DNA of 64,000 bases from a virus (IMGVR_UViG_3300032287_003869:27810-91809); one strand, 5' to 3'; numbered from the stretch's first letter, positions 29,634 to 60,347 are shown. The notes: generated by a model from the sequence alone, not told the origin. Translations and numbers: made by a program.

Positions 29634-29667
29634 TTGAATTATTTATACTTTAAGCTAAATCATCTAT

Positions 29668-30489: not shown

Positions 30490-31402
30490 TCTCTCTTTTA
30501 TTCGTCTTTGGGTCTAGCAAATGGAGAGTGTTTTTCTTGTTAGAAAAACAATTCATGGACCCAGCTATTTTTGTCATTTGAGCACTATGAAGACCGACAA
30601 CTGCTTTACATTGTTTCAATATCTCGACATTCTTCATGAACATTAAAGTTTCCTGCTCTCTTAATGCTGGATTTCTAGTAACCATATCAGCATTTGACAT
30701 TTTTTGATCACCATATCTTTTCTCTTCACTATCATATACGAAATTATATTGAGGATATTTTTTTTCCATTTCGTGTATATAATCCAACTCATCACTTGTT
30801 ACAAAAAAAGAATCTCCAAGATTATTTTCTTCAACGTATTTGAAAAGATATTCGTCTGAAAGATAAGATGTTTCCATTATCTTATCGCCCCTACGAAGGT
30901 GCAATGCTGTTAAGTTTTTAAATCCTTTTATCTCGTATTTCTCTTTGATAAAGTCGATACATTCTTCCACCTTGTCCTTGTATGTTTTATTCAATTTCAG
31001 CAAACCATACATATATCCAGAATACATTGTGTAATCGGCATCATTTGGACACCAGCATTGATACTTGTGCATGTTTTCACTATTCCAATATTTCCCAAAA
31101 TCGAAAAACACAACCTCTTTGTCATTTTCTGTGAAGTCGAATATTTCGACTTCTTTTATTCCCTTCTTTTTTAAAGTATCAAGATTCACGTCAAATTGCT
31201 TGAAAGGATCTTCATACACATAACTCGTATACCTGAAAATAGGAGTTCTTCCAAATGCATGTCCAATTTGCATAATCAGTTTTCTTCTGGCATACATTGC
31301 CCCAAAACCACCCCATTCAATGTCGCCTATAATATATTTTTTAGAATCAAATAATTCGTAATTCACTTTCTTATTGAGAAGAATTTTGAAAGAAATCAAC
31401 AT
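30461..31402 (-). CDS. GT23-like (FUT8/NodZ-type) fucosyltransferase; start uncertain
   Basis: GFGA, ALHLRRGDK, FFVTSDE motifs. Confidence 0.7.
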   Translation of the reverse strand: MLISFKILLNKKVNYELFDSKKYIIGDIEWGGFGAMYARRKLIMQIGHAFGRTPIFRYTSYVYEDPFKQFDVNLDTLKKKGIKEVEIFDFTENDKEVVFFDFGKYWNSENMHKYQCWCPNDADYTMYSGYMYGLLKLNKTYKDKVEECIDFIKEKYEIKGFKNLTALHLRRGDKIMETSYLSDEYLFKYVEENNLGDSFFVTSDELDYIHEMEKKYPQYNFVYDSEEKRYGDQKMSNADMVTRNPALREQETLMFMKNVEILKQCKAVVGLHSAQMTKIAGSMNCFSNKKNTLHLLDPKTNKRETMGSSEQTS

Positions 31403-31434
31403 TTGTTTTTCAAAAACACATTCTAAATATCATC

Positions 31435-32112
31435 ATGGAAAAAGATTCAAAATTTATAGAAGAATGTACAGGAGCCTGCGATTGGGATTCTTTAATTTTA
31501 AAAAGATTTTTGGAGTTTGTTCCAGAAAATTCTATTGTTGCGGACATAGGCGCTAATCATGGAATATTCACTTTGAATATTACTAAAAACATAAAAACAA
31601 AACAAATATATGCGATTGAGCCTGATCATCAAAACTTTGAAATATTGAAACTCGGAACAAAAGGAGAATCAAATGTTAACCTCATAAATGCAGCTGTTTC
31701 TGATCATAATGGTGAAGTCGATATTTGGGATGGAAACGGGGATCATGCCACAAGAAACATTCTTGGGGAAAAGTCATTTTGGGGAGAAGGTAGAATTAAG
31801 AGAAAGACATGCACTGTGGATTGCGCCACATTGGATTATATTTTTGGTGAAAAATTGAAAGTCGCCCCAGACGCCTGTAAAATTGATGTTGAGGGCGCTG
31901 AATTATTGGCATTTGAGGGTGGGAAGAAGACAATTCCAAAAATGAAATGTTTATTTGTGGAATGCCACACCAATGAAACATATCAGGGTATTGTGAAAAT
32001 GTCTTTGGAAAACAATTGGGAAATATTTTGTCTCAAAAATCTCCACAAAATAACTTCAGTGGAAGAACTCGATTTCTGTTACCAAGTTATTATTTTTCCA
32101 CAAGGGAAATAA
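31435..32112 (+). CDS. FkbM-family methyltransferase
   Basis: DIGANHG, AIEPD, KIDVEGAE. Confidence 0.9.
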   Translation: MEKDSKFIEECTGACDWDSLILKRFLEFVPENSIVADIGANHGIFTLNITKNIKTKQIYAIEPDHQNFEILKLGTKGESNVNLINAAVSDHNGEVDIWDGNGDHATRNILGEKSFWGEGRIKRKTCTVDCATLDYIFGEKLKVAPDACKIDVEGAELLAFEGGKKTIPKMKCLFVECHTNETYQGIVKMSLENNWEIFCLKNLHKITSVEELDFCYQVIIFPQGK

Positions 32113-32971
32113 TTCGTTCACAAACCTTATCCAAGGTAAAGAAGTTTTTATACGCTTCTTTACCGTTTTGTGACATAACATCTATTTCGGATTGAGTCTT
32201 GGATTTTAAAATATCTTTAAGATTTTCAATATTTTTTACATCCAAAACAACACTAAATGAGTTGTAATTCAATACGTCAGAGAAAGGAAGATATGGAACA
32301 TCGTCATATATGTAAACAGGAATCGATCCAAGTTGCAATGTTTCGTAAAACCTAAAACTCTGTTTACCATAACCCCTTGCACATATTGTAAAAACCGATT
32401 TTTTAGTTGTTTCCCTGAATATATCCAAATCACTCTTGTTGATATTATATTGCCAAGTTTTACTGGATATATGAAAATCGCTGTCTTTTTTACAATATTC
32501 TATCGTTTTTCTCCTGACATCGTGAGTCTCTGATCCAACAAAACTACAAAATATACTTTTATCGTATTTTACACCATCGTCAGGAATAGGAGAACATACT
32601 AAAGGAATAGGTATCCCCTTTGGATAATTACCACCAGCGGAATAAACATCCACATCCAAGTGTTCTGTTTTTTCACTTGGAGCATCATCGTGCTGTGAAA
32701 CTATAAAATATTTTTTATCTTTTGGTATTGTATTAAGATAACATTGGATGACAGGATTCTTGTAATTGTGTATCCAATTTCTTAGATATATATTTGTCCA
32801 AAATATTGGAAGATAATATCTGGAATACTCTTTATCCAAACAATTTTTAATGAAATAATCGCAAAAATATTCCTCCAAATAAAGACCTTGATGGTAACAA
32901 GGATAGGGGGGAAGAGGGTATTTTATCCTCAAATAAGTAGTATCATGGAACAGTTTCTCTTGAAAGTTCAC
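32090..32971 (-). CDS. Exostosin-family (GT47) glycosyltransferase
   Basis: SFVGS, SVFTICARGYGKQSFRFYETLQLGSIPVYI, YLPF. Confidence 0.85.
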   Translation of the reverse strand: MNFQEKLFHDTTYLRIKYPLPPYPCYHQGLYLEEYFCDYFIKNCLDKEYSRYYLPIFWTNIYLRNWIHNYKNPVIQCYLNTIPKDKKYFIVSQHDDAPSEKTEHLDVDVYSAGGNYPKGIPIPLVCSPIPDDGVKYDKSIFCSFVGSETHDVRRKTIEYCKKDSDFHISSKTWQYNINKSDLDIFRETTKKSVFTICARGYGKQSFRFYETLQLGSIPVYIYDDVPYLPFSDVLNYNSFSVVLDVKNIENLKDILKSKTQSEIDVMSQNGKEAYKNFFTLDKVCERIISLVEK

Positions 32972-33626
32972 TCTTAATATATTCTAATAGTTTGATTTTA
33001 TTGTTCACACCGACAGTCCAATTGGCATGGTGCATTAAAATTGATTTTGGAATATTATCATATTCCTCACCATTCCATACAGCATTTCCAGTATTATATG
33101 CTATCGTGTAATACTTGTCTTCAGGAAATGTTCTCCAATTCAGAGAATTTCTACCAAAGTAGTTGAAAGCATACTGGTCATGTTCGAACTTGTCAATGTG
33201 TAAAATAGAATTTTCGAAAACTTTTTTTAATTTTTCTGTGCAAGTCATAACCATGAAACCTGTGCATAAAATTACATTTTCTGGACATTTAGGTGTGTCG
33301 CACTGACAAAAAAGATCAACATCGGGTTCCAAGTCTTTATATTTCAATATGTCTTCTGTAAATCCATCGAAGAACTGAATGTCGGGATCAGAATAAATGA
33401 TCCTCTCTCCCATATTGTCTTCAATCGCTTTGATTATGACTTGAACCTTATCGGAAGTTGATTTACGAAATCCGTAAGTGCTATAGGAACCATCATTGCT
33501 AACTTGATCCATTTCTGACACATATAAAGAAAAATCTTTATTTTTATTTTGTTTTTTATATGTGGGGAGGAAATAATTGTCAAAAAACGGTTTATGAGAA
33601 GCGGTAAAAGATGTATATATCTTCAT
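32943..33626 (-). CDS. Nucleotide-diphospho-sugar transferase (GT77-like)
   Basis: YSDPDI, LCTGFM, DQYAFN, HHANW...KIKLL. Confidence 0.8.
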   Translation of the reverse strand: MKIYTSFTASHKPFFDNYFLPTYKKQNKNKDFSLYVSEMDQVSNDGSYSTYGFRKSTSDKVQVIIKAIEDNMGERIIYSDPDIQFFDGFTEDILKYKDLEPDVDLFCQCDTPKCPENVILCTGFMVMTCTEKLKKVFENSILHIDKFEHDQYAFNYFGRNSLNWRTFPEDKYYTIAYNTGNAVWNGEEYDNIPKSILMHHANWTVGVNNKIKLLEYIKSELSRETVP

Positions 33627-34534
33627 AGAAGAGATGGTATGTTATTTATAAATCCGGTTGGAGAAAGATAGTTTTCCCAAATCTCTCTGCATCTTTTTTG
33701 TCTTTCAGCTAAATCGTTTTTTTCACAATACTCTTGTATTTTATCTGGAAGAGAATTCAATTCTTTTTCTTCAACAAAAACTATTTCTTTTTTATAATCA
33801 ATTAAATTTTCAAAAGGAAGAACACAATCCGTATCGATAAAGACTGGAATTCTACCAAAACACATGGTTTCATAGAAACGATAGGAAAAGTTACCACACC
33901 CTCTAGGACAAAGAATAAAGATATTGTTTTGCAAATTATTGAAAAACTTCTCTCTTCCTTTCATCTTATCCACAGATGGGTTTTGAAAGAAAGAGAAAAC
34001 CTCATCATGCTGAATCATGAATCCACTTGTTTTTAATATTTCCAATGCTTCTTTTCTTATCGGCCTATTACTATCTCCGCAAAATCCAATAGAAGCTCTA
34101 TCTGAAAACCCCTTAGAATTCTTCAAAATATCTGGAATGAAAACTGGAAAGGCGAATTCGTTTTTCTTTTTTTCAGATGCAAAGAAAGATGTTCTAAAAA
34201 GTATAACATCTTCAGGAATGTTATAATCCCCTCCGAAATCATCATTGTTCAGGCATATCAATTTCTTTCCATTTTTTCTGGAAAGTTCCAATATATCTAG
34301 GAATCTCTTTTCCAGAGACGATATAAATTTGAATGGGAGAACGAAGTAATCACACTCTTTTTCATCAGCATATTCTATTCCTGTAAGATTTTGAAAAATA
34401 CCTGATTCCCAAAATCTATTTCCATCGATATGATCTTTTGCTTGTTTGGAAAGAAGAGGATAGGTGAAAAGAAGCTCAGTGACCAATTCAAGGTCGGATT
34501 GTTTCAAATATTGTTTAGGAACGTGGTATTTCAT
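33623..34534 (-). CDS. Exostosin-family (GT47) glycosyltransferase
   Basis: IGFCG, FILCPRGCGNFSYRFYETMCFGRIPVFI, VLPF. Confidence 0.85.
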   Translation of the reverse strand: MKYHVPKQYLKQSDLELVTELLFTYPLLSKQAKDHIDGNRFWESGIFQNLTGIEYADEKECDYFVLPFKFISSLEKRFLDILELSRKNGKKLICLNNDDFGGDYNIPEDVILFRTSFFASEKKKNEFAFPVFIPDILKNSKGFSDRASIGFCGDSNRPIRKEALEILKTSGFMIQHDEVFSFFQNPSVDKMKGREKFFNNLQNNIFILCPRGCGNFSYRFYETMCFGRIPVFIDTDCVLPFENLIDYKKEIVFVEEKELNSLPDKIQEYCEKNDLAERQKRCREIWENYLSPTGFINNIPSLL

Positions 34535-35331
34535 GGGTTAAAGTATTTGTTTTCCAGTTCAACTTCATTATCAAAAGGTGTCCAATAATTTTGACCCTTT
34601 CTTCTTAAAAGAACATTGAAAAGAAAATCATGCCACATCTTGCAATCGTCTTTATGTATATTCCAAAGAATATTCTTATTGTATTCCAATTCGGGCGATT
34701 GGTTGGAAGAAACTTCTTCATGCATTATGTGGAAAAGCATTGGAGGCCATTTGTTACAAAAATCGCAATTTCCTATTTTTTTCATTATAGTTGCATAATG
34801 AACATCCCATCCACTTATTGCATAAATGTATTTTGGAAATTCATTTTTATGTTTTTTCCACCATTCTGTTTTTACAGCATATGCATCGAATCCCGCCACT
34901 TGATAATGAGAAATTTCTTTAGGCTGCTCATCTATAGATGATATGTCACCAATTGCCAATCTTGCTGCACAGTAGGTATCGAAATTTGTATTTAAAATAT
35001 GTTTTATAAATCTATCAGAAATAATAATATCCGAATTTACAAAAATAAACATATCGATATCATTTTGGTCGGAATATTCGCAAAGAACATTAAACATGTC
35101 ATGTATCATTGGTAAATCCCTATCAAAACCATTAGTATAGGATTTGCTATGTTCTGTTAATTTTGGAAGAAAAACAATATCATCATTTTTTTGTGGATTT
35201 TCAGAACCCTCAAAATCCATGTTTAAAAGAGTCAATCCAAATTGTTTTTTTAATTTTAAAAGACTTTTTTGAGAAATTTCAACCCTTTTATTCAACGGGT
35301 AGTGTAAATTAAATCCAATGGCAATTCTCAC
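34531..35331 (-). CDS. GT-A fold glycosyltransferase-like protein
   Basis: FIFVNSDII, GFDAY, GWD, FHIMHE; cluster context. Confidence 0.6.
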   Translation of the reverse strand: MRIAIGFNLHYPLNKRVEISQKSLLKLKKQFGLTLLNMDFEGSENPQKNDDIVFLPKLTEHSKSYTNGFDRDLPMIHDMFNVLCEYSDQNDIDMFIFVNSDIIISDRFIKHILNTNFDTYCAARLAIGDISSIDEQPKEISHYQVAGFDAYAVKTEWWKKHKNEFPKYIYAISGWDVHYATIMKKIGNCDFCNKWPPMLFHIMHEEVSSNQSPELEYNKNILWNIHKDDCKMWHDFLFNVLLRRKGQNYWTPFDNEVELENKYFNP

Positions 35332-35353
35332 GAATAAGATTTATTCAAACTCG

Positions 35354-35951
35354 TTATGTTTTCAATCCAAAAAAATAATCATTATGAGTGCCATCCCAAT
35401 TAGGATTGTTTAGAGGATTATAGTTGGTAACATTTTCTAAACACTCATATCCGAAAAAAGAAAGATAATCAAATATTTCTTTTTTATCTTTTTCATATAT
35501 CTCTATTAACATGAAAGATATTTGTTTTTTTGTGAGATCTATTCCCTTGAGAACTTCCAACTCGTAACCCTCAACGTCCAATGAAAGAAAATCTATTTTA
35601 TTAAATCCGCTTTCATCTATTATAGATTGCAATGTTCTTGCTTTAACTGAAACTAAATTTGAATCATTAAGCCTATGCCCACCAACAGAAGACATCGCGT
35701 GTCCATTAAAATTTCCCAAAACTTCATTTTTTTTTATAATCAAAAGAAACACAAGCACTATTAAAAATTTTATTATTCGGTCTAGTTTTTAAGCAAGCAT
35801 CATATCCTACAAAAGACGGCTCAATCAATATTCCACTCCATCCAAAATCATCTTCCAGCCATTTTGTATTGGATTGAAACGCTCCATCATTCGCTCCAAG
35901 TTCAATGTAAGCCCCGTTTCTGAAATCCAAAGACTGCTTGTAAATTGACAT
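35354..35951 (-). pseudogene. FkbM-family methyltransferase interrupted by a frameshift in an A9 run
   Basis: The N-half (IELGANDG, ILIEP) and C-half (FLSLDVEGYE) are in different frames; removing one A from 35727-35735 joins them. Confidence 0.8.
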
Positions 35952-45893: not shown

Positions 45894-47135
45894 ATGCCAG
45901 TTCTAATAGATAACAAGCAAGAAGATGATTCCCTATATCCAACATTGTTTGGATTTCCAACAAAAAACGGATTCGCATCAAAGTCCCTAAACTTCATTTA
46001 TGTCGTTGTTATGATTGTTGCAACGGCATTTGCATTCCATGCATTGAGTTTGATTCTTCCAGACTGGAATACTGGACTAATATTTCTTGCTGCTCTATCG
46101 GTTGTCGGTCTGCCCTATTGTATTAAAATCATAATGTATGGAAGAGAAGTGTTTGAATATAAAATGGCAGTATTATGTATTCTCATAAGCCTTCTACCTA
46201 CAATATTTGATTTTATAGGCTTCTATTCAGAAACAAGCATCAGGCAATCCTTGATGTCTAAAAAGTTTGAGGTATTAGAAATAGTTAATTATTTCGACAA
46301 AGAAGCTAGACAGAGTTTAAATGCGCAATTACTTGAATTGGATAAAGATTTTGCCAACAAAACATCCCAACAAGAACAATTATTAAATTCCGGAATTAAA
46401 AAAATAGATGATCAATTAAACATATCACAGACCCAAATCGAACAAAAATCCAACAATTTTCAAAAACAAATTAACACTAGAGTAAATTCAGCAAAACAGG
46501 CTATATTAGATGAAACTCAAGGAGTCAGAGGAAAATCAACATCTGGTGTTGCAGGAAGTGGTCCAAGAGCACTTGAACTTCAGGCCGATCTAAGGAAAGA
46601 AGAAGCATCAGTTGAATTGGAAAAAAAAGAATTTGATACAAATAAACAAAAAGAAATAGAAAAAATATTATTATCATCTGAACTAGAAAAAAACACATTA
46701 AGACAAAATCACGAAAAAGAATTGGAAAAAATTAAAAAAGAATATGAATCAAAAAAACAATCCTTCAATGAAGGGATTGGGGCAATAGATGCATTAATGG
46801 GAGAAAAGGGTTTGATATTCGATGTTAATAAAGCAAAAAGCTTTACAGAATTGGCTGATACATCTGTAAAGTTAAACAATTCAATAAACATCGTATCATC
46901 CAAATTGAATGTGGAACCGAAATATGTAAAATTCGAATCGGACAATGTAATTCAACTTTCTTTCGGGGCATTATTAAAAGGGGAGATTACAGCAATCATT
47001 TGTTTTCTTCTTGCCATTCTTTTGGAAATCGTTGATACAATAATAGTTTATATGGTGAGAGGCACTAGACCTGATAATAAAAAAAGAAAATATGAAGAAC
47101 CTGTATCCAAATTGAGAGAAAGAATATACTATTGA
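45894..47135 (+). CDS. Membrane-anchored coiled-coil protein (DUF4407-like)
   Basis: Three N-terminal TM segments, long coiled coil with DETQG...G.GPRA, C-terminal TM. Confidence 0.7.
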   Translation: MPVLIDNKQEDDSLYPTLFGFPTKNGFASKSLNFIYVVVMIVATAFAFHALSLILPDWNTGLIFLAALSVVGLPYCIKIIMYGREVFEYKMAVLCILISLLPTIFDFIGFYSETSIRQSLMSKKFEVLEIVNYFDKEARQSLNAQLLELDKDFANKTSQQEQLLNSGIKKIDDQLNISQTQIEQKSNNFQKQINTRVNSAKQAILDETQGVRGKSTSGVAGSGPRALELQADLRKEEASVELEKKEFDTNKQKEIEKILLSSELEKNTLRQNHEKELEKIKKEYESKKQSFNEGIGAIDALMGEKGLIFDVNKAKSFTELADTSVKLNNSINIVSSKLNVEPKYVKFESDNVIQLSFGALLKGEITAIICFLLAILLEIVDTIIVYMVRGTRPDNKKRKYEEPVSKLRERIYY

Positions 47136-47159
47136 CAAGTTGATCATTGCTGTTAAGAT
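47132..47159 (+). promoter_or_regulatory. Sigma70-type promoter TTGACA-N16-TAAGAT (extended -10 TG)
   Basis: Direct sequence. Confidence 0.7.
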
Positions 47160-47173
47160 AGCTTCAATCATTT

Positions 47174-48250
47174 ATGATTAACAATAAAAACCTAGCCGAT
47201 TCGAAGGAAAAAGCCCTTAGAATGAAATCAAAAGGATACTCTGTTGCTGAAACAGCCAATGTGTTAAACCTCCCAAAATCGACAGTTTGGGATTGGTTCA
47301 ATGATCGAAAAAGAAACTCCGATTTTCCTATTGCTAGGAAGAATGAAAACCTCTCTTTCCAAAGAGAAAAATTGGATAAAAAGAATTTTGATGTGCAAGA
47401 GTTCATTTCTCAACTTGCTCCTATAAATTTAAAAGCCCCCAAGCTCAATATTGTGAGTGAGGATTCGTTCAACGATTATGTTGTCATCATGAATGACATG
47501 CACTTTCCCCTGCACTGTCAAAAATCAATAGACATTGCATTTTCTGTAATCGCGGAGCTTAATCCCAAATCAATCATTTTAAATGGCGATTCTTTGGACA
47601 TGCTGGCAATTTCCAGATATCCCAAGGATATTAGAAAACAATTTTCCTTGCTGGATGAAAGAATTGAATACCATAAATTTCTACACTCTTTGATTGAAGT
47701 GTCAGGTGGTGCTCAAATTGTGGAAGTTCATGGAAACCATAGTGGAGACTCAACTGGTGGTCGTTGGTGGCGTTATTTGAGCGAAAGAATCGGAGAACTT
47801 ATTTGTTTGCCAGAAATGGAACAAACATTGAGTTATGATAATATTTTCCTCGGAGACTTCAGGAAACACATTTCAACTGCCGATTATGTTGAAGTTAATG
47901 ATGATCTTGTTGTTTTACACGGTGATGTTGTTAGAAAACACGGTGGATTCTCAGCAAGGGGAACCTTGGAAAAATATTATCAATCCACCATCATGGGACA
48001 CACCCATCGTGTCGGATTCACTGCCCAGAGGATTCCATCAATTGGAAAACGTAAAGATAAACAGATTTATGCGTATGAAATGGGCTGTCTCTGCAAAATA
48101 TCCGCGCTGTATTGCAGCACCCCAAACTGGCAAAATGCATTTGGAATTGTGAGCCTTAGCCAAGATGACAATTCTTTCGGAGTTGAGACAGTGATGATTA
48201 ATAATGGAGTTGCCAATGTCTCAACTTTGGGTAAAACGATATACGCTTGA
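47174..48250 (+). CDS. HTH-fused calcineurin-like metallophosphoesterase
   Basis: GYSVAETANVLNLPKSTVWDW HTH; NDMH, NGDSLD, GNH, HGD, GHTHR. Confidence 0.85.
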   Translation: MINNKNLADSKEKALRMKSKGYSVAETANVLNLPKSTVWDWFNDRKRNSDFPIARKNENLSFQREKLDKKNFDVQEFISQLAPINLKAPKLNIVSEDSFNDYVVIMNDMHFPLHCQKSIDIAFSVIAELNPKSIILNGDSLDMLAISRYPKDIRKQFSLLDERIEYHKFLHSLIEVSGGAQIVEVHGNHSGDSTGGRWWRYLSERIGELICLPEMEQTLSYDNIFLGDFRKHISTADYVEVNDDLVVLHGDVVRKHGGFSARGTLEKYYQSTIMGHTHRVGFTAQRIPSIGKRKDKQIYAYEMGCLCKISALYCSTPNWQNAFGIVSLSQDDNSFGVETVMINNGVANVSTLGKTIYA

Positions 48251-48280: not shown

Positions 48281-49528
48281 ATGAGTATTTTTATTCAAAT
48301 CGCGTCTTATCGTGATCCTCAGCTTCTTCCCACTTTAAGGGATTGTTTAAAAAACGCTAAAAATCCAAATGATCTTGTATTTGGAATTTGTTGGCAACAT
48401 ACTGAAAAAGACAGTCTAGAAGAGTTTTACAACGACCCTAGATTTAAAATTATAGATGTACCCCACATGGAAAGTAAAGGGGTGTGTTGGGCTAGAAATA
48501 AGGTACAACAACTCTATAATGGAGAAAAATATACTCTTCAGATCGATTCCCACATGAGATTTGCCCCGAATTGGGACGAAACGTTGATCAAAATGATCAA
48601 TCAGTTGAAGAAAAAAGGACACAAAAAACCTTTACTGACAGGATATGTTCCCTCTTTTAATCCTGAAAATGACCCCGCAGAAAGAATTCAACAACCTTGG
48701 AGAATGGTTTTTGATCGATTCATTCCAGAGGGTGCTGTATTCTTTCTCCCCGAAACAATTCCGAATTGGGAAACATTAAAATCACCTGTACCTGCAAGAT
48801 TTTATTCTGCTCACTTTTGTTTCACTCTTGGAGAATTTTCCAAAGAAGTTCAACATAATCCAGAATATTATTTCCACGGTGAAGAAATTTCAATTGCAGC
48901 TAGGGCATATACTCATGGATATGATTTATTCCACCCACATACAGCGGTCATATGGCATGAGTATACGAGAAAAGGTAGAACAAAACAATGGGATGATGAT
49001 AAGGAATGGGTCGCAAAAAACAATCATTCCCACCTCACAAATAGAAAATTATTCGGAATGGACGGATTATCCCAAGAAGGGCATGATGGACAATATGGTT
49101 TTGGAAAAGTTAGAACACTGAGGGACTATGAAGAATATTCCGGTCTACTTTTCTCAGAAAGATCCGTTCAACAATATACTCTGGATAAGAATAATCCACC
49201 AAATCCTTCAATCGAATCTTGTGGAGGAGAAGAAAATTGGAAAAAGAAATTTGCAAGAGTATTCAAACATTGCATCGATATAGGATACCATCAAGTTCCA
49301 GAAAAGGATTATGATTTTTGGGTCGTTGCGTTTCATTCTGAAGACAATGAAACAATTTACAGAAAAGATGCGGACAAGGATGAAATCCAAAGAATGATAA
49401 ATGATCCTGACAAATATTGCAAAGTATGGAGGGAATTCCAGACCACAAAGAAACCAAAATATTGGGTCGTTTGGCCGCACTCTATATCAAAAGATTGGTG
49501 CGAAAGAATTACAGGGAATTTACCATAA
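48281..49528 (+). CDS. GT60-like polypeptide GlcNAc transferase
   Basis: IFIQIASYRD, SKGVCWARN, LQIDSHMRF..NWD, FHGEEIS.AARAYTHGYD, WHEY. Confidence 0.85.
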   Translation: MSIFIQIASYRDPQLLPTLRDCLKNAKNPNDLVFGICWQHTEKDSLEEFYNDPRFKIIDVPHMESKGVCWARNKVQQLYNGEKYTLQIDSHMRFAPNWDETLIKMINQLKKKGHKKPLLTGYVPSFNPENDPAERIQQPWRMVFDRFIPEGAVFFLPETIPNWETLKSPVPARFYSAHFCFTLGEFSKEVQHNPEYYFHGEEISIAARAYTHGYDLFHPHTAVIWHEYTRKGRTKQWDDDKEWVAKNNHSHLTNRKLFGMDGLSQEGHDGQYGFGKVRTLRDYEEYSGLLFSERSVQQYTLDKNNPPNPSIESCGGEENWKKKFARVFKHCIDIGYHQVPEKDYDFWVVAFHSEDNETIYRKDADKDEIQRMINDPDKYCKVWREFQTTKKPKYWVVWPHSISKDWCERITGNLP

Positions 49529-50293
49529 GTGAAAAATAATTTCGATATAGGAATTACCACATTTTCTTTAAGATACGATTTTGTAGAAAATCTAATAAAC
49601 AAAATTAGAGAATTAGGCGTGGATAACAATATCATTCTTTGTATAAACGGAGAAAGAAACGGAAAATTCAAAGAAGAATATAGAAAAAAAATATTGAACT
49701 TATGTTTATCGCATTCAAATGTTTTTCCTGTATTTTTTGTGGAAATGAGGGGTCTTTCTAAAATGTGGAATACTTTATTGATACATTCATCAAAAGATGA
49801 TATTTTGATTCTAAACGATGATATTTCTATTTTCAATTCCAACATTTTTGATGTTGTTTCCGATCATATAGAAAGTCAGTATTATTTTGGACTATCTAAA
49901 ATAAATGGAACATTTTCTTATTTTGTAGGAAATAAAAATTTAATACAGGATTTGGGTTATTTTGACGAAAGACTTCTTGGATTTGGCGAAGAAGATGGAG
50001 ACATAACATATAGAATGATTGAAAAGAAAGACACTAACGTTTATAATCTAAACGTCCAAGGAGTCCACAACATAGTTTCCGATATAAGACATGAGGATGT
50101 GAAGTCCGGTATTGGTAAATATTCATTTTTTAATAGGGATTTTACCTTCAATCAAAAATATAATTGCAATGATGCAAAGAGCGGAATTTCTGGAATGTTT
50201 GGTATGGTTTGCGATAAGGTTATGATTGATGAAAATCAATATCCTTACGAAAAATTCTTCAGGGAAAACAAGGAAAAGTTGTGGAAAGATTGA
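49529..50293 (+). CDS. GT2-like glycosyltransferase
   Basis: GLSKMWN, ILNDD, GYFDERLLGFGEEDGD. Confidence 0.8.
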   Translation: MKNNFDIGITTFSLRYDFVENLINKIRELGVDNNIILCINGERNGKFKEEYRKKILNLCLSHSNVFPVFFVEMRGLSKMWNTLLIHSSKDDILILNDDISIFNSNIFDVVSDHIESQYYFGLSKINGTFSYFVGNKNLIQDLGYFDERLLGFGEEDGDITYRMIEKKDTNVYNLNVQGVHNIVSDIRHEDVKSGIGKYSFFNRDFTFNQKYNCNDAKSGISGMFGMVCDKVMIDENQYPYEKFFRENKEKLWKD

Positions 50294-51225
50294 AGATCAA
50301 GTTGGAATGTTGGTGGTCCGATGCACTATCACTTCATAATAGATTCATTAAACAATTTGTAGAAGAAAAAGATTCTCAGAAATATGAATTTGTATTGGAA
50401 GATCAGGATTTTACCATTGTTTTTGGTAGAACGAATTGGGATCAATTAAAAACACCAAAGGAAAAAACATTTTATATTTCCCAAGAACCATTGTGGTCGC
50501 CGAATCAACCAAAAGAAGGAATTCATGAATATTGTTCGAAGATTCTAATATCCGATAGAAACGAATATCCAAATAGAGCAGAATATATAGAAACTCTACT
50601 TCCGATGTTTTATGCTGGTAGAGGGGAGATTGACAGTAGGGAAGAGTGGGATTGGTCGTTAAAAATAAGAGATAAAAACTTTAAAAAAACAAAACCAATT
50701 TCGATTGTTGTTAGAAAGGATTATTGTAGTCACTGGAATCATCTATCAAATCCTAATACAAATACCATAAACTATATCGAAAGAACCAATCTGGGAATAG
50801 AATTATCTAAAAATGAATCAATAGATATATATGGGACATATTGGGAAAACAATGGGAAAAATATAAAAGGAGAAGTGTGGAACAAACATGTGGCATTGGA
50901 TGAATATTTCTTTTCAATTGGATGCGAAAATACCATACAAAAAAACTATATAAGTGAAAAGTTTTGGGATATAGTATTAACAGATTCCATTCCGATTTAT
51001 TTGGGCTGCAATAATATATTAGAACATATTCCGGAAAATTGTTTTATTAATTTAAATGGAATGAAAATCGAAGAAATGGTTTTGAAAATCAATGATATCT
51101 TGAATAACTATCAAGAGTACTATAATTTTTATATTCCAAATGTTAGAAATCTCAAACAAGATTTTTTTATAAATCCTGATTTTAATCTTTGGGAAAGAAT
51201 TAAAAAACTAATAAGTGAAAACTAA
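50281..51225 (+). CDS. GT10-like alpha-1,3/4-fucosyltransferase
   Basis: YFFSIGCENTIQKNYISEKFWD...IPIYLG motif. Confidence 0.85.
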   Translation: MERLKIKLECWWSDALSLHNRFIKQFVEEKDSQKYEFVLEDQDFTIVFGRTNWDQLKTPKEKTFYISQEPLWSPNQPKEGIHEYCSKILISDRNEYPNRAEYIETLLPMFYAGRGEIDSREEWDWSLKIRDKNFKKTKPISIVVRKDYCSHWNHLSNPNTNTINYIERTNLGIELSKNESIDIYGTYWENNGKNIKGEVWNKHVALDEYFFSIGCENTIQKNYISEKFWDIVLTDSIPIYLGCNNILEHIPENCFINLNGMKIEEMVLKINDILNNYQEYYNFYIPNVRNLKQDFFINPDFNLWERIKKLISEN

Positions 51226-52099
51226 AATTGTAACATCAATATATTCCGATTTACATGGAACAGAATTTGGAGGAAGACCAAGTAGAGGAGGTCATTATAG
51301 ACATTCTTTATTGAGTCTTATGAAAATGTCTGATGCTGATTTTGTTTGTTATACTTCCGACAGAGAATTCGATGATTTGGTTAAATTTTTTTATTTGGAA
51401 AATAATGTAGATAAGAACAAATTAATCTTAAAAAAATACGATATTTCCAATTTTTCATTAAGTGCGAAAATAGACAAAATAAAAAACATAGAAGAGACAA
51501 AACACTCTGATCGTTGTGTGGAAATTCAATATTGCAAATTCATATGGTCTATAGATGAATCGGATATTGCTAATTATGACAATCTTTACTGGTTTGACGC
51601 TGGATTATCACATGCTGGTCTCTTTCCAAGAAGATACATGAATCAAAGCGGATATTGGCAACAGAATTATCATTGCACTCTATTCAATAATAAAATTCTA
51701 TCGAATCTTATAACATTTACTGGTGACAGGATTTTCCTTTGTGCAAAGGAAAACCAAATGAATTATTGGAGCGGAACAGTTCCAAGAGAATACTACAATG
51801 AACATTGCATGGATCGACACATAATTGGTGGTTTTTTTGGGGGGAAAACACAAAATATGAAAAAATACTGTGATCTTTTCTTGGAATATGCTCACAAATT
51901 GTTAGATAAAGAGCCTATATTATATTTTGAAGAGAATATAATGACTCTCATGTTTTACAATCACAATGAAATGTTTGCTCCAAAGTATTTTGATATTTGG
52001 TGGCATGAGGATGATAAAATGGATGGTCTTGATTTACACGAATATACCAAAACTAGGAAGAGTTTTTACAAAATCATCGAGGAATTGAGAGATGCCTAG
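51215..52099 (+). CDS. HtrL/WlaTC-like glycosyltransferase
   Basis: YWFDAGL, IIGGFFGG, EENIMT. Confidence 0.7.
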   Translation: MKTKIVTSIYSDLHGTEFGGRPSRGGHYRHSLLSLMKMSDADFVCYTSDREFDDLVKFFYLENNVDKNKLILKKYDISNFSLSAKIDKIKNIEETKHSDRCVEIQYCKFIWSIDESDIANYDNLYWFDAGLSHAGLFPRRYMNQSGYWQQNYHCTLFNNKILSNLITFTGDRIFLCAKENQMNYWSGTVPREYYNEHCMDRHIIGGFFGGKTQNMKKYCDLFLEYAHKLLDKEPILYFEENIMTLMFYNHNEMFAPKYFDIWWHEDDKMDGLDLHEYTKTRKSFYKIIEELRDA

Positions 52100-52805
52100 C
52101 CTATCAATTAACATGAAATTTTGGGATGATGGTCAACCTAATTCCACAAGAATTAGAAATGTTTCTTATTGTTGGAATGAGTTGAAAAAGCTATCTTTAT
52201 TTTTAAGAGAGAAAGGAATCGGTGCATTTGAGTCTCTTTATGATTTTTCCGTTGAGAAAATAATAGATGACTCAAAACACATCCCATATCCTTTGGGAAC
52301 ATATAAAAAAGCAGAAAAAACTAATATTATTCTAAAAGATCAACAGAAATATGATTTTTTTATGATGATGGATTGTGATGCTTTCTTTCAGAAAGAAGAT
52401 TATTCCAAGCTATTGAATGTTTTATTGGACATAAAAAAGGGAGATGTTGTAACTTTCGACCTTGCAAAGTTGGAAGATAATGTTTCCGATTATATTGTCG
52501 ATGGGGAATTTGATATTTCCAAAGCAAATTGGTCTTATGCGTATTCTGGAAAAAGAGAAAACGGTCCATTAAATGGATATATGGGTGGGCTTGGAGGGGT
52601 ATATATCTGCGATACCTCTTTGTTATTGGAACTTGGGGGATTTGATGAAAAATATAAAGGATGGGGAGGAGAAGATGGTGAAATGTTAAGTAGAATATGG
52701 GAATCTAAAATTCCACATGCATTCAAACCAACAAGAAATTTTGCACCATTTCACTTGCCCCATTTTTGCGATTGGGGAAATGAATTATACAAAGAGAGAT
52801 TTTAA
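52092..52805 (+). CDS. GT-A glycosyltransferase with GT7-C-like motif
   Basis: MMDCDAF, GGFDEKYKGWGGEDGE, FHLPH. Confidence 0.8.
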   Translation: MPSLSINMKFWDDGQPNSTRIRNVSYCWNELKKLSLFLREKGIGAFESLYDFSVEKIIDDSKHIPYPLGTYKKAEKTNIILKDQQKYDFFMMMDCDAFFQKEDYSKLLNVLLDIKKGDVVTFDLAKLEDNVSDYIVDGEFDISKANWSYAYSGKRENGPLNGYMGGLGGVYICDTSLLLELGGFDEKYKGWGGEDGEMLSRIWESKIPHAFKPTRNFAPFHLPHFCDWGNELYKERF

Positions 52806-52807
52806 AA

Positions 52808-54469
52808 ATGAATAGAACAACATTAGTTACAGGTCTTTGGGACATTAAAAGAGGAGAATTATCTGGAAATTGGTCTAGAAGTTATGATCATTACTTGAAT
52901 AAATTTGAACAACTTTTAAAATTAGAAGATAATTTGATAATTTTTGGGGACGAAGAACTAAAGAAATTTGTGGAAGAAAGAAGAAGTTCGGAAAACACGC
53001 AATTTATTGTTAGAAATTTGGATTGGTTCAAAAACAATGAATTTTACGACAACATTCAAAAAATAAGAACAAATCCAAATTGGATCAATCAAGTCGGATG
53101 GTTGGGTGAATCGACACAAGCCAAATTGGAAATGTATAATCCTCTAGTGATGTGCAAAATGTTCTTGTTACATGATGCAAAGATCATGGATCGTTTTAAT
53201 TCGAAGTTTATGTATTGGATTGATGCTGGATTGGCAAACACGGTACATGCTGGATATTTTACACATGATAAGGTTTTAGATAAATTGGAAAAAGAAATTT
53301 CAAAATTCTTTTTTGTTTCATTTCCATATGCGGCTGAAAAAGAAATCCATGGTTTTGATTATAATAAAATAAATGAAATAGCAGGATGTAAAGTCGAAAA
53401 GGTATCTAGAGGAGGATTCTTTGGTGGACCGAAAGATGAAATATCCGAGATGAATCAGATTTATTATGATTTGATGAAAACCACATTGAATGATGGATAT
53501 ATGGGAACAGAGGAGTCTATATTCAGCATAATGGCCCACAAATATCCGAATAAGGTTGATTCCTTTACAATAGAATCAAACGGATTGATGGGCAAGTTCT
53601 TTGAAGATGTTAAAAATAATAATTTACCAATTGATGAGAAGAGAAAACAAGAACTAAACATCCAAAATACCGCACTTTATGTAATAACATTCAATAGCCC
53701 TAAACAATTTGAAACACTTATTGAGTCGATGCTTTCTTATGATAGGGATTTTATAGATAAACCTAAGAAGTTTTTACTAGATAATTCATCCGATTTATCA
53801 ACAACGCCAAAATATGTGGAATTGTGTGAGAAATATGGATTTGAACACATAAAGAAAGATAATTTGGGAATTTGTGGGGGGAGGCAGTTTATAGCAGAAC
53901 ATTTTGATCAAACCAATTTGGATTTCTATTTCTTTTTTGAGGATGATATGTTTTTAAATCCAAATAAAGAACAAAAATGTAAAAATGGATTTCCAGTTTA
54001 TGTGGAAAGTCTATATGAAAAATCTTTGAAAATTACAAAAGATAACAATTATGATTTCTTGAAACTTTCTTTTACTGAATTTTATGGGGATAATGGTACT
54101 TCTTGGCCATGGTATAACGTGCCGCAGAACTTTAGAATACAAAATTGGCCAGAGAAACCAAACCTTCCTAAAATGGGACTCGATCCAGATGCACCAAAGA
54201 CAAAATTCAAAAACATCAAATCATTTAAAGGGTTGCCTTATGTGGATGGGGAAGTGTATTATTGTAATTGGCCGCAAGTTTTATCGAAACATGGAAATGT
54301 TAAAATGTTTTTGGAAACAAAATGGGAGCGAATTTTTGAAAACACTTGGATGTCATACATTTACCAAGAAACTATCAAAGGAAAAATTAATCCAGCATTG
54401 TTGTTATTGACGACTATTTCTCACAATCGTTTTGATCACTACGCTTCAGGATTGAGAAAAGAAAGTTAA
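52808..54469 (+). CDS. Two-domain glycosyltransferase: HtrL/WlaTC-like plus GT2-like
   Basis: TLVTGLWDI, YWIDAG, GGFFGG, TEESIF; then LDNSSD, NLGICGGRQ, FFEDDM. Confidence 0.75.
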   Translation: MNRTTLVTGLWDIKRGELSGNWSRSYDHYLNKFEQLLKLEDNLIIFGDEELKKFVEERRSSENTQFIVRNLDWFKNNEFYDNIQKIRTNPNWINQVGWLGESTQAKLEMYNPLVMCKMFLLHDAKIMDRFNSKFMYWIDAGLANTVHAGYFTHDKVLDKLEKEISKFFFVSFPYAAEKEIHGFDYNKINEIAGCKVEKVSRGGFFGGPKDEISEMNQIYYDLMKTTLNDGYMGTEESIFSIMAHKYPNKVDSFTIESNGLMGKFFEDVKNNNLPIDEKRKQELNIQNTALYVITFNSPKQFETLIESMLSYDRDFIDKPKKFLLDNSSDLSTTPKYVELCEKYGFEHIKKDNLGICGGRQFIAEHFDQTNLDFYFFFEDDMFLNPNKEQKCKNGFPVYVESLYEKSLKITKDNNYDFLKLSFTEFYGDNGTSWPWYNVPQNFRIQNWPEKPNLPKMGLDPDAPKTKFKNIKSFKGLPYVDGEVYYCNWPQVLSKHGNVKMFLETKWERIFENTWMSYIYQETIKGKINPALLLLTTISHNRFDHYASGLRKES

Positions 54470-54470
54470 A

Positions 54471-55958
54471 TCACACAATTGGCGGATTGTTTTTATAGGG
54501 ATGTCCTATTGGTAAATTAGATGCAAGTCCCCATTTGTGGGCAAGATAACCTTCAATTTTAACTTGAACATCTCCACTAGGAACGCCTTCAATAACAATA
54601 AATTCACACATATGACCGTTAAGTGAAGTTGTAAGGTTGCTTGGCCATGCGAGCCAATTTCCCATTGTCATACCATATAATGTTTCCACTCCAAGTGTTC
54701 CGCTTACAACGTTTGATAGAGTGGATGAAAAGCTTCTATAACAAGATCCATCTACAACATCAGGTTGTTTAATGAATGTTATAATAAATGGATCGGTTCC
54801 AACATTAACACTTCCACCATAATTTTCAATGGAACCATCGCCCTCATCAATATCTCTTGTTAATACTTGAATTATTTCATTAGATGTTCCACTTATTCTG
54901 GAGGAGTATCTATTTAAAACTGGAGGTTGATTGTATACATCAGAATCGAAAAGATGTTGGGTTTTATTTGTTGCCGTTAATTGAGCGACAATTGCGACAT
55001 AATTGGAATTAGATGGTTGGAAGTCAGAGTTTGAAATTCTCAATACATCTCCTTCGCTTCCAAATGTCAATACATTATTTCCATTTATTGTTGTTACATT
55101 ATACGATGGGTCATTAGAAGAATTAGGAGATACTAAATTTCTACTGTTTCCGCTTTTATCATTGACTTGATATACGGAGTTGTTTGTTTGTAAAACTCTT
55201 GAGGAATCAGATGCATCATACCAAGCATATGTTGTTATGTATGATGGGTTCCAAGGATATACAGTGGTTGGTGTCGGTGTAGGTGTTTCTGTCGAAGTAA
55301 TAGTTGGAGTAATACTTGGAGTTGGCGTATTTGTCAGAGTTAATGTATTTGTTGGTGTATTTGTCGGGGTTTCAGTTGGGGTTGGTGTTTGTGTATTTGT
55401 TGGTGTATTTGTTGGGGTTTCAGTTGGAGTTGGTGTTTGAGTATTAGTTGGCGTTTGCGTATTTGTTGGTGTATTTGTAGGGGTTAGGGTGTTTGTGATT
55501 GTCGGGGTATTAGTTGGAGTATTTGTAGGTGTTGGTGTATTGGTTGGAGAACTTGTTGGGGCGGGTTCAACACACCCACAACACTCAAAACCGCTGGAAA
55601 TTGAAAAATACGTGAATCTTTTAATTTCTGATGCTTTTTTATACCCCGCACCATTGAAATAAAGAATATCATAATTTCCTTTTGGGAGATTATCTGGCAT
55701 TTTGAATTGTAAAACAGTTCCACCATTCAAGACATCGTATTCATATACAGGAAAAACATCCACAGCGGGATATCTTCCGCTTATGGATTTTATGTGGGAA
55801 TATAAATTAAGAGAACTTGTGGGTATTGTTGTATTGGAGGATGAAAGATATAAACCATTCAATGTTACATACTGAAACATATCACCATGAATTGTCACAA
55901 TTGCGGATGATAAATTTTGAGTGTCTAACTTGAATGTTGGTTTGGAATAATCCTTCAC
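54471..55958 (-). CDS. Virion fibre-like protein with a mucin-like Pro/Thr stalk and a C-terminal ConA/LamG-like domain
   Basis: About 100 aa of TPT/TPTN repeats; WYDASD...DKSGN..., [12 protein letters not shown]; start reassigned to GTG 55958, 5 nt after TAAATA. Confidence 0.75.
55263..55565 (-). repeat. Pro/Thr coding tandem repeats, including a duplicated 16-aa unit [15 protein letters not shown](Q/L)
   Basis: Direct sequence. Confidence 0.9.
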
Positions 55959-58286: not shown

Positions 58287-60347
58287 ATGCAACAAAAGGA
58301 TTCCACTTTCAAATATGTCCAGTTTTGGAACAATCAAGCTCTGGATACAGACCATGACATAATCATAAGTGTTGATTATGCATTGCACAATTACAATGAT
58401 ACTCCAAGTTGCGGATTTTGTATAGCATTATTTGAGAGCATCACAGACAAGCCAAGAGGCGGCGGACCAGCATATAGCCTCGCATATACCCCAAATGATA
58501 TAAAAGTAGATTGTAATATAGAAAACTCATCTGGATTGGAAGCAGCAATATATGGAATTGGTTTCGATCCAAGTGGAATATTTGCAAAAAGAACTCCTTA
58601 TGTTTCCGGAGTAGATTATACAGTATCAAATTCCATTTGCTTGAGAGATGGGATTAAAAATGATTACAAATTCCTAAAACAAACTGAAAATTTACAAAAT
58701 TTTGAGATTGCCCAGCAATTAATAAATCCAGAAGAAAAAATACAATACAAGCAAGCAAGAATTATTTTCTCCAAGTGCATGAGTTATCTCCGTGTTCAGG
58801 TTAAGAATGACGATGAGAAAGAATTTACTCAAGTACTAGAGACAGAACTCCCAATTCTTCCAAAGAAATCAATCAAAATAGGACTTTTCTATACATCAAT
58901 AGATCAGCACAGTAGATTTCTTTTAAAACAATTCAATGTTGCAGGATTTCCAGCAAGAGAAGAAACAAATTACGATACACCTTGCTTTCAGGAGATAGAA
59001 ACCAATTACGACAATCAATTTAAAAGAATAGCAGCAAATGAAAACTGGATTGCATCTAATAGAACAAATGGTTTCAATATATACAAATTTGATGGAAAAC
59101 AATTTTCATTAAAGCAAGAGATAAGAAGCACAAAAGACATTAAGATACTCAATTATAGTGATAATCTTCTTTTTGCGAAATCCAATGAGAGTTTGATAGT
59201 ATACGAGTTTAGAGGAAACAAAATGGTGAAACAAAACACCATAACACTTCCTACAACTGCCGATATTACCTCTTGTGCTGGATATGGGGATACTCTTGTT
59301 GTTGCATCATCTTCTTCTGAAAATTATTTTGTATACAATTACATAAGGGAATCTGAAGACCTTTCAAACATTGGAAAGTGGGAATATTATCAAACATTCA
59401 ATTATCCATTAAGTACTGGATTTGGAACAAACATCGAGATGTCTGATAACTATCTCGTTTCTTATTCCACCAATGATTTTGTAATTTCTTTCAAAAAAGA
59501 TCCAGACTTTGGTTATCAATACCACCAGACATTATTACCTCCATTTTCATCAGCAAAGGGATTTGGATATTCCATGTCGATCCAAAGAGACAATGAGATG
59601 ATAATTGGTGCTCCTTTTGGAGAGAAGAGATATATTACTGGATACAATCAAGGAGAGGCATTCCATTATGTATTGTCACCCTTCACTAAAGAGTGGATTC
59701 TTATATCCGACATTTCACAATACTTCAACATGGACACCCTTTCTGGGGCATTTGGATATTCTGTTAAGATAAAAGGAAATTATGCTGCTGTGGGTTGCCC
59801 ATTTGAACTCGCCTATTTGAGTGACTACCCTTGGATAGAAGTTCAGGCACAAGGAAAAGTTTATCTTTTCAAAAAAGATGAACAGGGGTATTTTACAAAT
59901 AGAACAATATATTATCCCCCAAGTTTTGAGGGAGATGTTGTTAGAAATTACGGAAGACAGGTCAATATATTTGGAAACAACTTGGCGGTATTGATGCCTT
60001 ATTTGTCTTCCGATCAAAATGATGCCATTGACATTTATAATTTGGGATGTCCAGCACTTTCTGCTCCGATGTTGAGGCCCACACCGACCCCAACGCCAAG
60101 CATAACTCCAAGTGCAACGCCAGCATCGACCCCTCCAGTAACACCATCTGTTACTCCCACATATACTCCTACACCAACTCCAACGCCCACAGTCCCAGCA
60201 CTGGAAGGAATTGTGACAATTGTGGATCAAATTTCAATTTCTGAAATAAATGGAGACTTGTTATACCCGATAGAGGATAAAGGAATAGTTACATTTCTAG
60301 AAGAACAAATTTATTCTTTCGACAATGATGGAATTTTTCCATTTTGA
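58287..60347 (+). CDS. Virion adhesin-like protein: L-type lectin-like domain, FG-GAP-like propeller and Pro/Thr tail
   Basis: GFCIALF...GIGFD..GIF; FGYSMSI..IIGAP and FGYSVKI..AVGCP repeats; [11 protein letters not shown] stalk. Confidence 0.7.
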   Translation: MQQKDSTFKYVQFWNNQALDTDHDIIISVDYALHNYNDTPSCGFCIALFESITDKPRGGGPAYSLAYTPNDIKVDCNIENSSGLEAAIYGIGFDPSGIFAKRTPYVSGVDYTVSNSICLRDGIKNDYKFLKQTENLQNFEIAQQLINPEEKIQYKQARIIFSKCMSYLRVQVKNDDEKEFTQVLETELPILPKKSIKIGLFYTSIDQHSRFLLKQFNVAGFPAREETNYDTPCFQEIETNYDNQFKRIAANENWIASNRTNGFNIYKFDGKQFSLKQEIRSTKDIKILNYSDNLLFAKSNESLIVYEFRGNKMVKQNTITLPTTADITSCAGYGDTLVVASSSSENYFVYNYIRESEDLSNIGKWEYYQTFNYPLSTGFGTNIEMSDNYLVSYSTNDFVISFKKDPDFGYQYHQTLLPPFSSAKGFGYSMSIQRDNEMIIGAPFGEKRYITGYNQGEAFHYVLSPFTKEWILISDISQYFNMDTLSGAFGYSVKIKGNYAAVGCPFELAYLSDYPWIEVQAQGKVYLFKKDEQGYFTNRTIYYPPSFEGDVVRNYGRQVNIFGNNLAVLMPYLSSDQNDAIDIYNLGCPALSAPMLRPTPTPTPSITPSATPASTPPVTPSVTPTYTPTPTPTPTVPALEGIVTIVDQISISEINGDLLYPIEDKGIVTFLEEQIYSFDNDGIFPF

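Follow-up and report, generated by a model that had tools for sequence, protein, structure and literature searches.

A GT60-led glycosyltransferase cassette beside Thr/Pro-rich protein genes in a T4-like phage: a possible phage O-glycosylation system

The cassette and its genomic setting

An uncultured freshwater phage, a T4-like myovirus with a GC content of ~33%, carries six consecutive glycosyltransferase (GT) genes at positions 48281-54469 of the DNA stretch IMGVR_UViG_3300032287_003869:27810-91809. This stretch, here termed the window, is the final 64 kb of a 91.8-kb IMG/VR contig that is estimated to represent ~44% of the genome. The gene cassette is led by an enzyme of the GT60 family (Pfam PF11397) and ends against a convergent gene, 54471-55958, whose product has a stalk rich in Thr and Pro. 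Judged from sequence comparisons, the phage probably uses the cassette to O-glycosylate Thr/Pro tracts of its own proteins in the cytoplasm, by soluble enzymes of which the extending set is variable.

All six open reading frames (ORFs) read along the + strand and follow one another end to end or with overlaps of a few bases: 48281-49528, 49529-50293, 50281-51225, 51215-52099, 52092-52805 and 52808-54469. The stop codon of the last gene (54467-54469) is separated by 1 bp from that of the convergent gene (54471-54473). An initial annotation of this DNA described six abutting glycosyltransferase genes that end 1 bp from a convergent gene. The ORFs and stop codons agree with this, and family or fold matches were found for all six products, that of 49529 being the weakest. 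On the 5′ side of the cassette are nrdA, nrdB, an HNH endonuclease gene and a metallophosphoesterase gene; on the 3′ side are tail-fibre and fibre-assembly genes, a baseplate hub gene and a gp5-like lysozyme gene.

No hydrophobic or transmembrane segment is found in the six window enzymes, which are all soluble. Genes for the synthesis of nucleoside diphosphate (NDP)-sugars were not found on the contig, and donors would therefore be supplied by the host. Across the window the T4-type late promoter TATAAATA shows no enrichment, and none precedes 48281; scans for sigma-70 promoters and terminators gave results no better than those with shuffled sequence. A megablast comparison of the cassette with GenBank phages showed no match.

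The lead enzyme

The product of 48281-49528 (+) is a soluble GT-A glycosyltransferase and a putative initiating polypeptide N-acetylhexosamine (HexNAc)-transferase. Described initially as GT60-like, it proves to be a true member of the PF11397 ('GlcNAc') family (E 6e-68; 230 bits against a cut-off of 21), with model positions 1-44 and 98-348 of 352 covered; it also matches phrog_24687 (1e-164). Residues D89-x-H91 (here D89-S-H91), H226, E202 and R208 are invariant in an alignment of 43 homologues of 36-77% identity. The AlphaFold model has a predicted local distance difference test (pLDDT) score of 96.1 and displays a GT-A fold with a DxH-type metal site, followed by a β-rich C-terminal domain (residues ~324-413). 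The top of the Foldseek list for this model consists almost entirely of GT27 polypeptide N-acetylgalactosamine (GalNAc)-transferases, with GalNAc-T4, T2, T12, T1, PGANT9 and TgGalNAc-T3 matched at E ~1e-9. Sequence searches of the PDB with the six enzymes or their profiles gave nothing useful.

The PF11397 family is large, with >7,600 clusters at 90% identity and 4,643 at 50%. Only one of 150 representatives combines GT60 and a Thr/Pro tract in a single polypeptide. Four proteins of the representative library (P0244, P0245, P0248 and P0253), 1,600-2,460 aa in length, contain four GT60-like stretches each.

GT60 enzymes of Trypanosoma cruzi and Dictyostelium use UDP-GlcNAc as the direct donor, with no lipid carrier, when they place α-linked N-acetylglucosamine (GlcNAc) on Thr residues of mucin-like domains (PMC8724618, PMC3769586). 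The peptide KPPT8KPP is a substrate of the T. cruzi enzyme (PMC3769586), and the founding member of the family, Gnt1, targets a hydroxyproline of Skp1 (PMC8724618). The phage enzyme shares with these protist proteins (T. cruzi TcOGNT, Dictyostelium Gnt2 and Gnt1) the Pfam family, the GT-A fold and the DxH motif. As in the protist enzymes there is no ricin-type lectin domain, and its solubility is like that of the cytoplasmic Gnt1. The likely phage acceptors are predicted to be Thr-rich and Pro-flanked, as is the KPPT8KPP peptide. Enzymes of the 48281 type differ from the protist proteins in that they are encoded by phages and bacteria, have a C-terminal β-rich domain of their own, and are paired with a two-headed partner of the HtrL type, for which protists have no known counterpart.

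The animal GT27 enzymes, which provide the best structural matches and have a common DxH metal site, act on dense Thr/Pro/Ser tracts, and by analogy the phage acceptor tracts may be likened to these. However, 48281 is only 9-17% identical to them and has no Pfam match to GT27. In addition, the GT27 enzymes are located in the Golgi, whereas 48281 is predicted to be cytoplasmic and is without the ricin lectin domain.

The other enzymes of the cassette

The remaining five genes vary in how often they recur in the 80 related phage loci described below. The second gene, 49529-50293 (+), encodes a GT2-like GT-A glycosyltransferase, a variable member (cluster c12) with a homologue in only 3-4 related loci. 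It matches phrog_29879 ('galactosyl transferase', 5.5e-8), and in the ESM Atlas it has viral GT2-like clusters as neighbours (score 0.99). The third, 50281-51225 (+), is a GT10-like (fucosyltransferase-family) enzyme (PF00852, E 9e-15); it too is a variable member, with homologues in 13 of the 80 loci, and its fucosyl specificity is a prediction. The fourth gene, 51215-52099 (+), encodes a putative HtrL-like glycosyltransferase that has no Pfam match. A profile of 23 sequences of this type aligns with a profile of 33 sequences of the HtrL half of the fusion family described next (hhalign 97%, E 5e-11), and the two have WxDAG, GGxFGG and EE motifs in common. This gene is semi-conserved, being found at 51/80 loci, usually immediately ahead of the fusion gene. 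The fifth gene, 52092-52805 (+), specifies a GT7C-like/GT2-like GT-A glycosyltransferase (PF02709, Glyco_transf_7C, E 4e-11; PF10111, 1e-4), and this variable member has homologues at four of the 80 loci.

The closing gene, 52808-54469 (+), is conserved and encodes a two-headed protein in which HtrL_YibB (PF09612, 3e-19, residues 3-249) is fused to a second GT-A domain. The AlphaFold model (pLDDT 86.6) shows two Rossmann-like GT-A halves. W137-x-D139 (W137-I-D139) and E378-D379-D380 are invariant and provide an acidic metal motif for each GT-A domain. The best Foldseek matches are LH3, Mimivirus R699, LARGE1, K4CP, COLGALT1 and PmHS2 (E 1e-12 to 1e-7). On the basis of the model, the protein appears to resemble the bifunctional transferases LARGE1, K4CP, PmHS2 and LH3 in having two GT-A domains in one chain. 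The resemblance to Mimivirus R699, LH3, COLGALT1 and LARGE1 is at the level of the fold only, with a template modelling (TM) score of about 0.25-0.3 over the two domains.

The family names first given to the third, fourth and fifth enzymes (GT10-like, HtrL-like and GT7C-like) are thus borne out by these matches. The GT2 assignment of 49529 is favoured by the PHROG match and the structural neighbours, and its family stays a lead. The closing gene was read as an HtrL+GT2 fusion; the HtrL part stands and the model supports a second GT-A domain, but the placement of that domain in GT2, or in another CAZy family, is not established.

Thr/Pro-rich proteins near the cassette

The convergent gene 54471-55958 (-) encodes a protein with an N-domain, a Thr/Pro stalk and a LamG-like tip, and is a probable acceptor. 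Its start codon is uncertain (GTG at 55958 or TTG at 56021). The stalk is a Thr/Pro/Asn tract of ~100 aa at about residues 152-255 of the 516-aa frame (DNA ~55255-55570), and the tip is encoded at 54474-55256. The C-terminal 260 aa match phrog_10356 ('virion structural protein', 8e-25), and several homologues of this domain have PF13385 (Laminin_G_3). From the PHROG names and the gene position, the product may be a virion protein. The stalk DNA contains imperfect tandem repeats of 12, 36, 48 and 66 bp at 55344-55541, and the length of the stalk could therefore change by slippage or recombination. On the gene's own strand TATAAATA is not found upstream, where there is only TCTAAATA, 6 nt before the GTG. 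This gene was first presented as a late gene with a ~100-aa stalk and a lectin-fold tip. The stalk and a LamG-type tip are present, and the designation as late is not sustained.

A second probable acceptor, 58287-60347 (+), is an FG-GAP repeat protein (PF14312, 3e-7) with a Thr/Pro tract of ~50 aa close to its C terminus (encoded at ~60070-60230), in keeping with the second Thr/Pro protein recorded there originally. It is situated between tail-fibre cassettes, with tail-fibre and fibre-assembly genes as its flanks. The whole 91.8-kb contig has no other long Thr/Pro tract, and both of these are on the downstream side of the cassette, no more than 6 kb away. A scan for close relatives in which the LamG tip of 54471-55958 was the query gave no loci, and among 120 distant homologues of the protein only one has a Thr/Pro tract.

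Related phage loci

A scan of IMG/VR produced 504 stretches that encode relatives. The best 80, of 73-83% identity, were analysed, and dereplication at 95% nucleotide identity leaves 49 loci. The fusion gene is downstream of the GT60 gene on the same strand at 74/80 loci, and the three variable transferases of the window are found at 3-13 of the 80 each. The interval from GT60 to fusion contains 60 different gene clusters across 47 loci. The minimal cassette is GT60-GT25-HtrL-like-fusion, and other middle members are GT10, GT2, GT1-like, PLOD-GT and RXYLT1-like transferases, FkbM/CmcI-like methyltransferases, a carbamoyltransferase, and a fusion of HAD and nucleotidyltransferase (sugar-activating) domains. 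The GT60 and fusion genes are conserved bookends, and the genes between them are freely swapped among related phages. Related phages would therefore bear different glycans.

Only 3 of 203 middle ORFs of the 47 loci have a borderline hydrophobic segment. No polyprenyl-phosphate transferase, flippase, polymerase or ligase is present among the Pfam matches of 20 cluster representatives, though the host could supply these. This bears on the question of whether the cassette remodels a glycan of the host envelope (lipopolysaccharide (LPS) core or O-antigen, capsule or wall polysaccharide), for example to block superinfection, with the Thr/Pro genes being mere neighbours at the island edge. Glycosyltransferase clusters of cyanophages and jumbo phages are usually read in this manner (PMC7824862; PMC12801897), and HtrL_YibB, GT25 and GT10 are associated with LPS in bacteria according to the Pfam descriptions. 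The two-headed fusion also resembles the capsule polymerases K4CP and PmHS2, the window cassette continues from early-type nucleotide-metabolism genes, and a second, separate transferase cluster is found at 29668-35758. On the other hand, the cassettes of the 47 loci have no lipid-carrier or membrane component, GT60 is known only for polypeptide acceptors, and the 48281 model is closest to the GalNAc-transferases. Three observations described in the next section also find no explanation in host-glycan remodelling: a distant GT60 clade that lacks HtrL again has Thr/Pro genes as partners, bacterial homologues have PqqD-Thr/Pro and VgrG genes nearby, and PF11397 is unevenly distributed over viral records. 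This explanation is weakened by the lack of membrane or lipid-carrier components and by its silence on the recurrent Thr/Pro neighbours, and we regard it as unlikely, though it is the main rival.

The proximity of GT60 and Thr/Pro genes is a recurrent property of these loci. Adjacency was defined as a Thr/Pro-rich ORF whose end is at most 150 bp from the GT60 start, or whose beginning is at most 120 bp from the fusion end. Such an ORF abuts the cassette in 35 of the 49 dereplicated loci and is within 2.3 kb in eight more. Median tract length is 191 aa, and the longest tract has 1,213 aa; Thr makes up 36.5% and Pro 20% of the residues, and the proteins that carry them belong, outside the tract, to 18 families, one of which is large. 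In G002, a 295-kb relative that is 98% complete, there are seven Thr/Pro-rich ORFs, and one of these is 61 bp from GT60; at one such ORF per 42 kb, the probability of chance adjacency would be ~1.4%.

According to a GT60 tree, the independent arrangements of the Thr/Pro gene are few. It is upstream in a clade of 43 rows, downstream on the same strand in one subclade, and convergent downstream or absent in the window's own clade of seven rows. Adjacency is thus kept under three arrangements. A check for co-occurrence of GT60 with Thr/Pro genes in relatives had been suggested when the locus was first annotated. The two are linked (the 35 adjoining loci above), with exceptions at three of seven loci in the window's own clade.

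Two further observations concern the extent and the upstream border of the cassette. In G002 (C1:59551-79969, which includes locus L030), 17.5 kb separate GT60 from the HtrL fusion, and the cassette there may extend over ~20 kb. In the window, positions 45894-48250 encode a 413-aa membrane protein (three hydrophobic stretches and a weak DUF4407 match) and the metallophosphoesterase. This pair is kept directly upstream of the cassette, or inverted beside it, in the window's GT60 clade (L004, L005, L008 and L061) and is not kept in the large GT60 clade.

Other phages and bacteria

When 80 loci were picked only for a run coding for (TP)5.5, five GT60 homologues were found. Three of the five belong to a GT60 clade of ~40% identity without HtrL, and these have a (PT)n protein of 535-604 aa encoded 57 bp to 0.9 kb downstream. 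PF11397 is present on 10 of 36 viral records chosen only for the (TP)5.5 run and on none of 28 control records, which were of comparable size and were selected with an arbitrary AT-rich 14-mer (one-sided Fisher p = 0.0017); the samples are small and the Fisher statistic ignores kinship. L154 (IMGVR_UViG_3300042451_001241) is a (TP)n-bearing contig that has PF11397.

Cultured phages that carry the system include XacN1, Xoo-sp13, CM1 and RAS14. Xoo-sp13 and XacN1, which are Xanthomonas jumbo phages, have the gene order GT60-carbamoyltransferase-HtrL-like-x-fusion. Identity to the window proteins is 47-48% for GT60 and 42-43% over the full length of the fusion. The block is convergent on a baseplate/fibre (tail) module that encodes proteins of 3,245 and 3,313 aa with PT tracts, and ORF350 of XacN1 has ~270 aa of PT. 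XacN1 virions display at least two glycoprotein bands stained by PAS/Schiff (PAS, periodic acid-Schiff), and ORF328 and ORF334 have been suggested to make these (PMC5852040). ORF334 is the GT60 homologue.

In bacteria, a genome scan gave 559 stretches from many phyla. Among the best 80 loci the fusion is beside GT60 in 31, and a Thr/Pro ORF is within 500 bp in 12. Metagenome-assembled genomes (MAGs) of Gemmatimonadaceae (L232:7143-7937 and L236:7212-7952) encode a PqqD domain, of the type that recognizes ribosomally synthesized and post-translationally modified peptides, joined to a ~90-aa Thr/Pro tail. GT60 and the HtrL fusion come immediately after these genes, and the arrangement, as far as sequence can indicate, looks like a dedicated peptide-glycosylation unit. 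In chromosome 1 of Ralstonia sp. 25C (L269:10273-13134), a VgrG type VI spike protein (Phage_GPD, Phage_base_V and Gp5_trimer_C) has a PT tract of ~146 aa, and its gene is convergent and 1 kb from a GT60 homologue. Other bacterial neighbours are small Thr/Pro proteins with twin-arginine-like leaders; these leaders were recognized in sequences read individually, as a regular-expression search over-called them by translating non-coding upstream DNA. The closest GT60 relatives in genome assemblies (L223-L229, 61-72% identity) come from contigs assigned to MAGs of Saprospiraceae, Lewinellaceae and other Bacteroidota. One of these contigs, of 230 kb and GC 0.34, could be a mis-binned phage. The Bacteroidota binning provides a weak hint at the host group.

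Another reading is that proteins are glycosylated away from Thr/Pro tracts, be it capsid or tail-tube subunits or other phage or host proteins; a variant is that hydroxyproline, not Thr, is the acceptor residue. The stained XacN1 bands could be such proteins, and in mycobacteriophages the glycans are on the C-termini of capsid and tail-tube proteins, as summarized in PMC12619734. The action of Gnt1 on Skp1 hydroxyproline (PMC8724618) is in keeping with the variant, as is the presence of 2-oxoglutarate (2OG)-Fe(II) oxygenases in two relatives, in one of which (G003) the gene is ~4 kb from GT60. Yet a 2OG oxygenase was found neither on the window contig nor in Xoo-sp13. Moreover, in phages and bacteria alike it is the Thr/Pro tract alone that accompanies GT60; the domains that flank it vary over the 18 families. 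We therefore give modification off the tracts a low probability, below that of host-glycan remodelling.

Glycosylation of modified phage DNA bases, comparable to the glucosylation of hydroxymethylcytosine in T4, is a frequent role of phage transferases (Pyle et al. 2024, as cited in PMC12619734), and in Xoo-sp13 and XacN1 the cassette is only a few genes from DNA polymerase and RNase H. A ThyA-like hydroxymethylase (PF00303) is present in Xoo-sp13 and G003; it was not found on the window contig (44% of the genome), in the 98% complete G002, or in G001 and G004. The cassette enzymes have GT-A folds, as opposed to the GT-B fold of the T4 α- and β-glucosyltransferases, and the 6-13 transferases per cassette, together with methyl- and carbamoyltransferases, exceed the needs of known DNA sugars. 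The bacterial homologues are chromosomal and beside Thr/Pro proteins. With PF00303 missing from the contig and from G002, and with GT-A folds throughout, DNA glycosylation was rejected as highly improbable.

Proposed pathway

In the O-glycosylation reading favoured here, 48281 would put the first sugar on Thr (or Ser) of Thr/Pro tracts, from a host UDP-sugar; the sugar is probably GlcNAc or another HexNAc. The acceptors in the window phage would be 54471-55958 and 58287-60347. The GT2-like, GT10-like, HtrL-like and GT7C-like enzymes would then lengthen the chain, and the two-headed HtrL/GT-A fusion might add two more sugars or a repeating disaccharide. Stiffening, protease resistance, masking and adhesion are candidate functions of such a coat. 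The initial annotation proposed a complete pathway for glycosylation of mucin-like stalks. The GT60 family membership and the linkage in relatives uphold phage O-glycosylation as an idea. Completeness is not supported, since NDP-sugar synthesis genes were not found on the contig and fucose as the sugar of the GT10-like enzyme is a prediction; nor is the description of the neighbouring gene as late supported.

Several observations weigh against this reading. Thr/Pro tracts are common as unglycosylated linkers. GT60 is lacking from 26 of the 36 (TP)n contigs, and in G002 Thr/Pro tracts are also found far from the cassette. The three exceptional loci of the window's own clade (L004, L008 and L074) have no Thr/Pro gene in their flanks. 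Adjacency in the large clade may be mostly inherited synteny, in which case it would represent few independent events, and 56 of 82 Thr/Pro proteins also have domains in common outside the tract. The GT60 gene trails nrdAB, the HNH endonuclease and the phosphoesterase genes by a 30-bp gap and is without a late promoter, so that co-expression with the acceptors is unsupported. The LPS association of the GT25, GT10 and HtrL families counts here as well, and neither the main text nor the supplement of the XacN1 paper names a protein for the stained bands (PMC5852040).

A broader proposal is that GT60-initiated cytoplasmic mucin-type O-glycosylation is common to large phages and to bacteria of many phyla, where it would coat Thr/Pro tracts of phage fibres, type VI VgrG spikes and small PqqD-linked or Tat-leader proteins, with the hypervariable cassette determining a lineage-specific glycan. 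We advance this generalization tentatively, as slightly on the doubtful side of even.

The window has a second glycan cluster, on mixed strands at 29668-35758. It comprises GT2-like, FUT8-like, two FkbM methyltransferase, two GT47/exostosin-like and GT77-like Nucleotid_trans genes. Sites for TATAAATA are near it at 29640(-) and 33643(-), and no Thr/Pro gene adjoins it.

Known systems and significance

To our knowledge, protein glycosylation by phages is established so far only in a few mycobacteriophages. In aquatic and jumbo phages, big islands of transferase genes are as a matter of routine labelled 'LPS genes' or DNA glucosylation genes. A full-text literature search found no paper that links GT60/PF11397 with phage Thr/Pro proteins.

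In the mycobacteriophages Che8, Corndog and Myrna, the phage's own transferases decorate virion structural proteins in the host (Freeman et al. 2023, as described in PMC12619734 and PMC11256854). The likeness to the present system is in the location of phage transferase genes beside genes for candidate structural proteins (1 bp apart in the window, and adjoining in 35/49 loci). The mycobacteriophage glycans are on capsid and tail-tube C-termini and involve one to few transferases, whereas the window phage has internal Thr/Pro stalks of fibre-like proteins as candidate acceptors, a GT60 initiator and a large variable extension cassette.

Giant viruses (chlorovirus Vp54; Mimivirus fibrils, collagen-like proteins and R699/L230) also encode soluble transferases of their own, there with virion proteins as targets, and the related phage loci resemble the giant-virus and LH3-COLGALT1 sets in their PLOD-GT, GT25 and RXYLT1-like genes. 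Both the viruses and the acceptors are different, however, and no collagen repeats are present in the window phage. Closer in content are the 'LPS' or capsule islands of cyanophages and jumbo phages (P-SSM2, S-SCSM2R; PMC7824862). These are hypervariable multi-transferase islands of large aquatic myoviruses, with GT2, GT10, GT25 and methyltransferase genes. They differ in that they are read as modifying the host surface and include NDP-sugar pathway genes (PMC7824862), and a link between a GT60 lead enzyme and Thr/Pro proteins is not described there.

If the favoured reading is correct, the very abundant PF11397 family would supply the enzyme that starts a mucin-like coat on the appendages of phages. 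Phage Thr/Pro tracts of hundreds of residues would then have a function, and there would be a reason for the swapping of transferases between relatives. Mucin-type initiation, which is regarded as eukaryotic, would reach bacteria and their viruses. Should the broader proposal also hold, phages would have a glycocalyx that evolves like the O-antigen.

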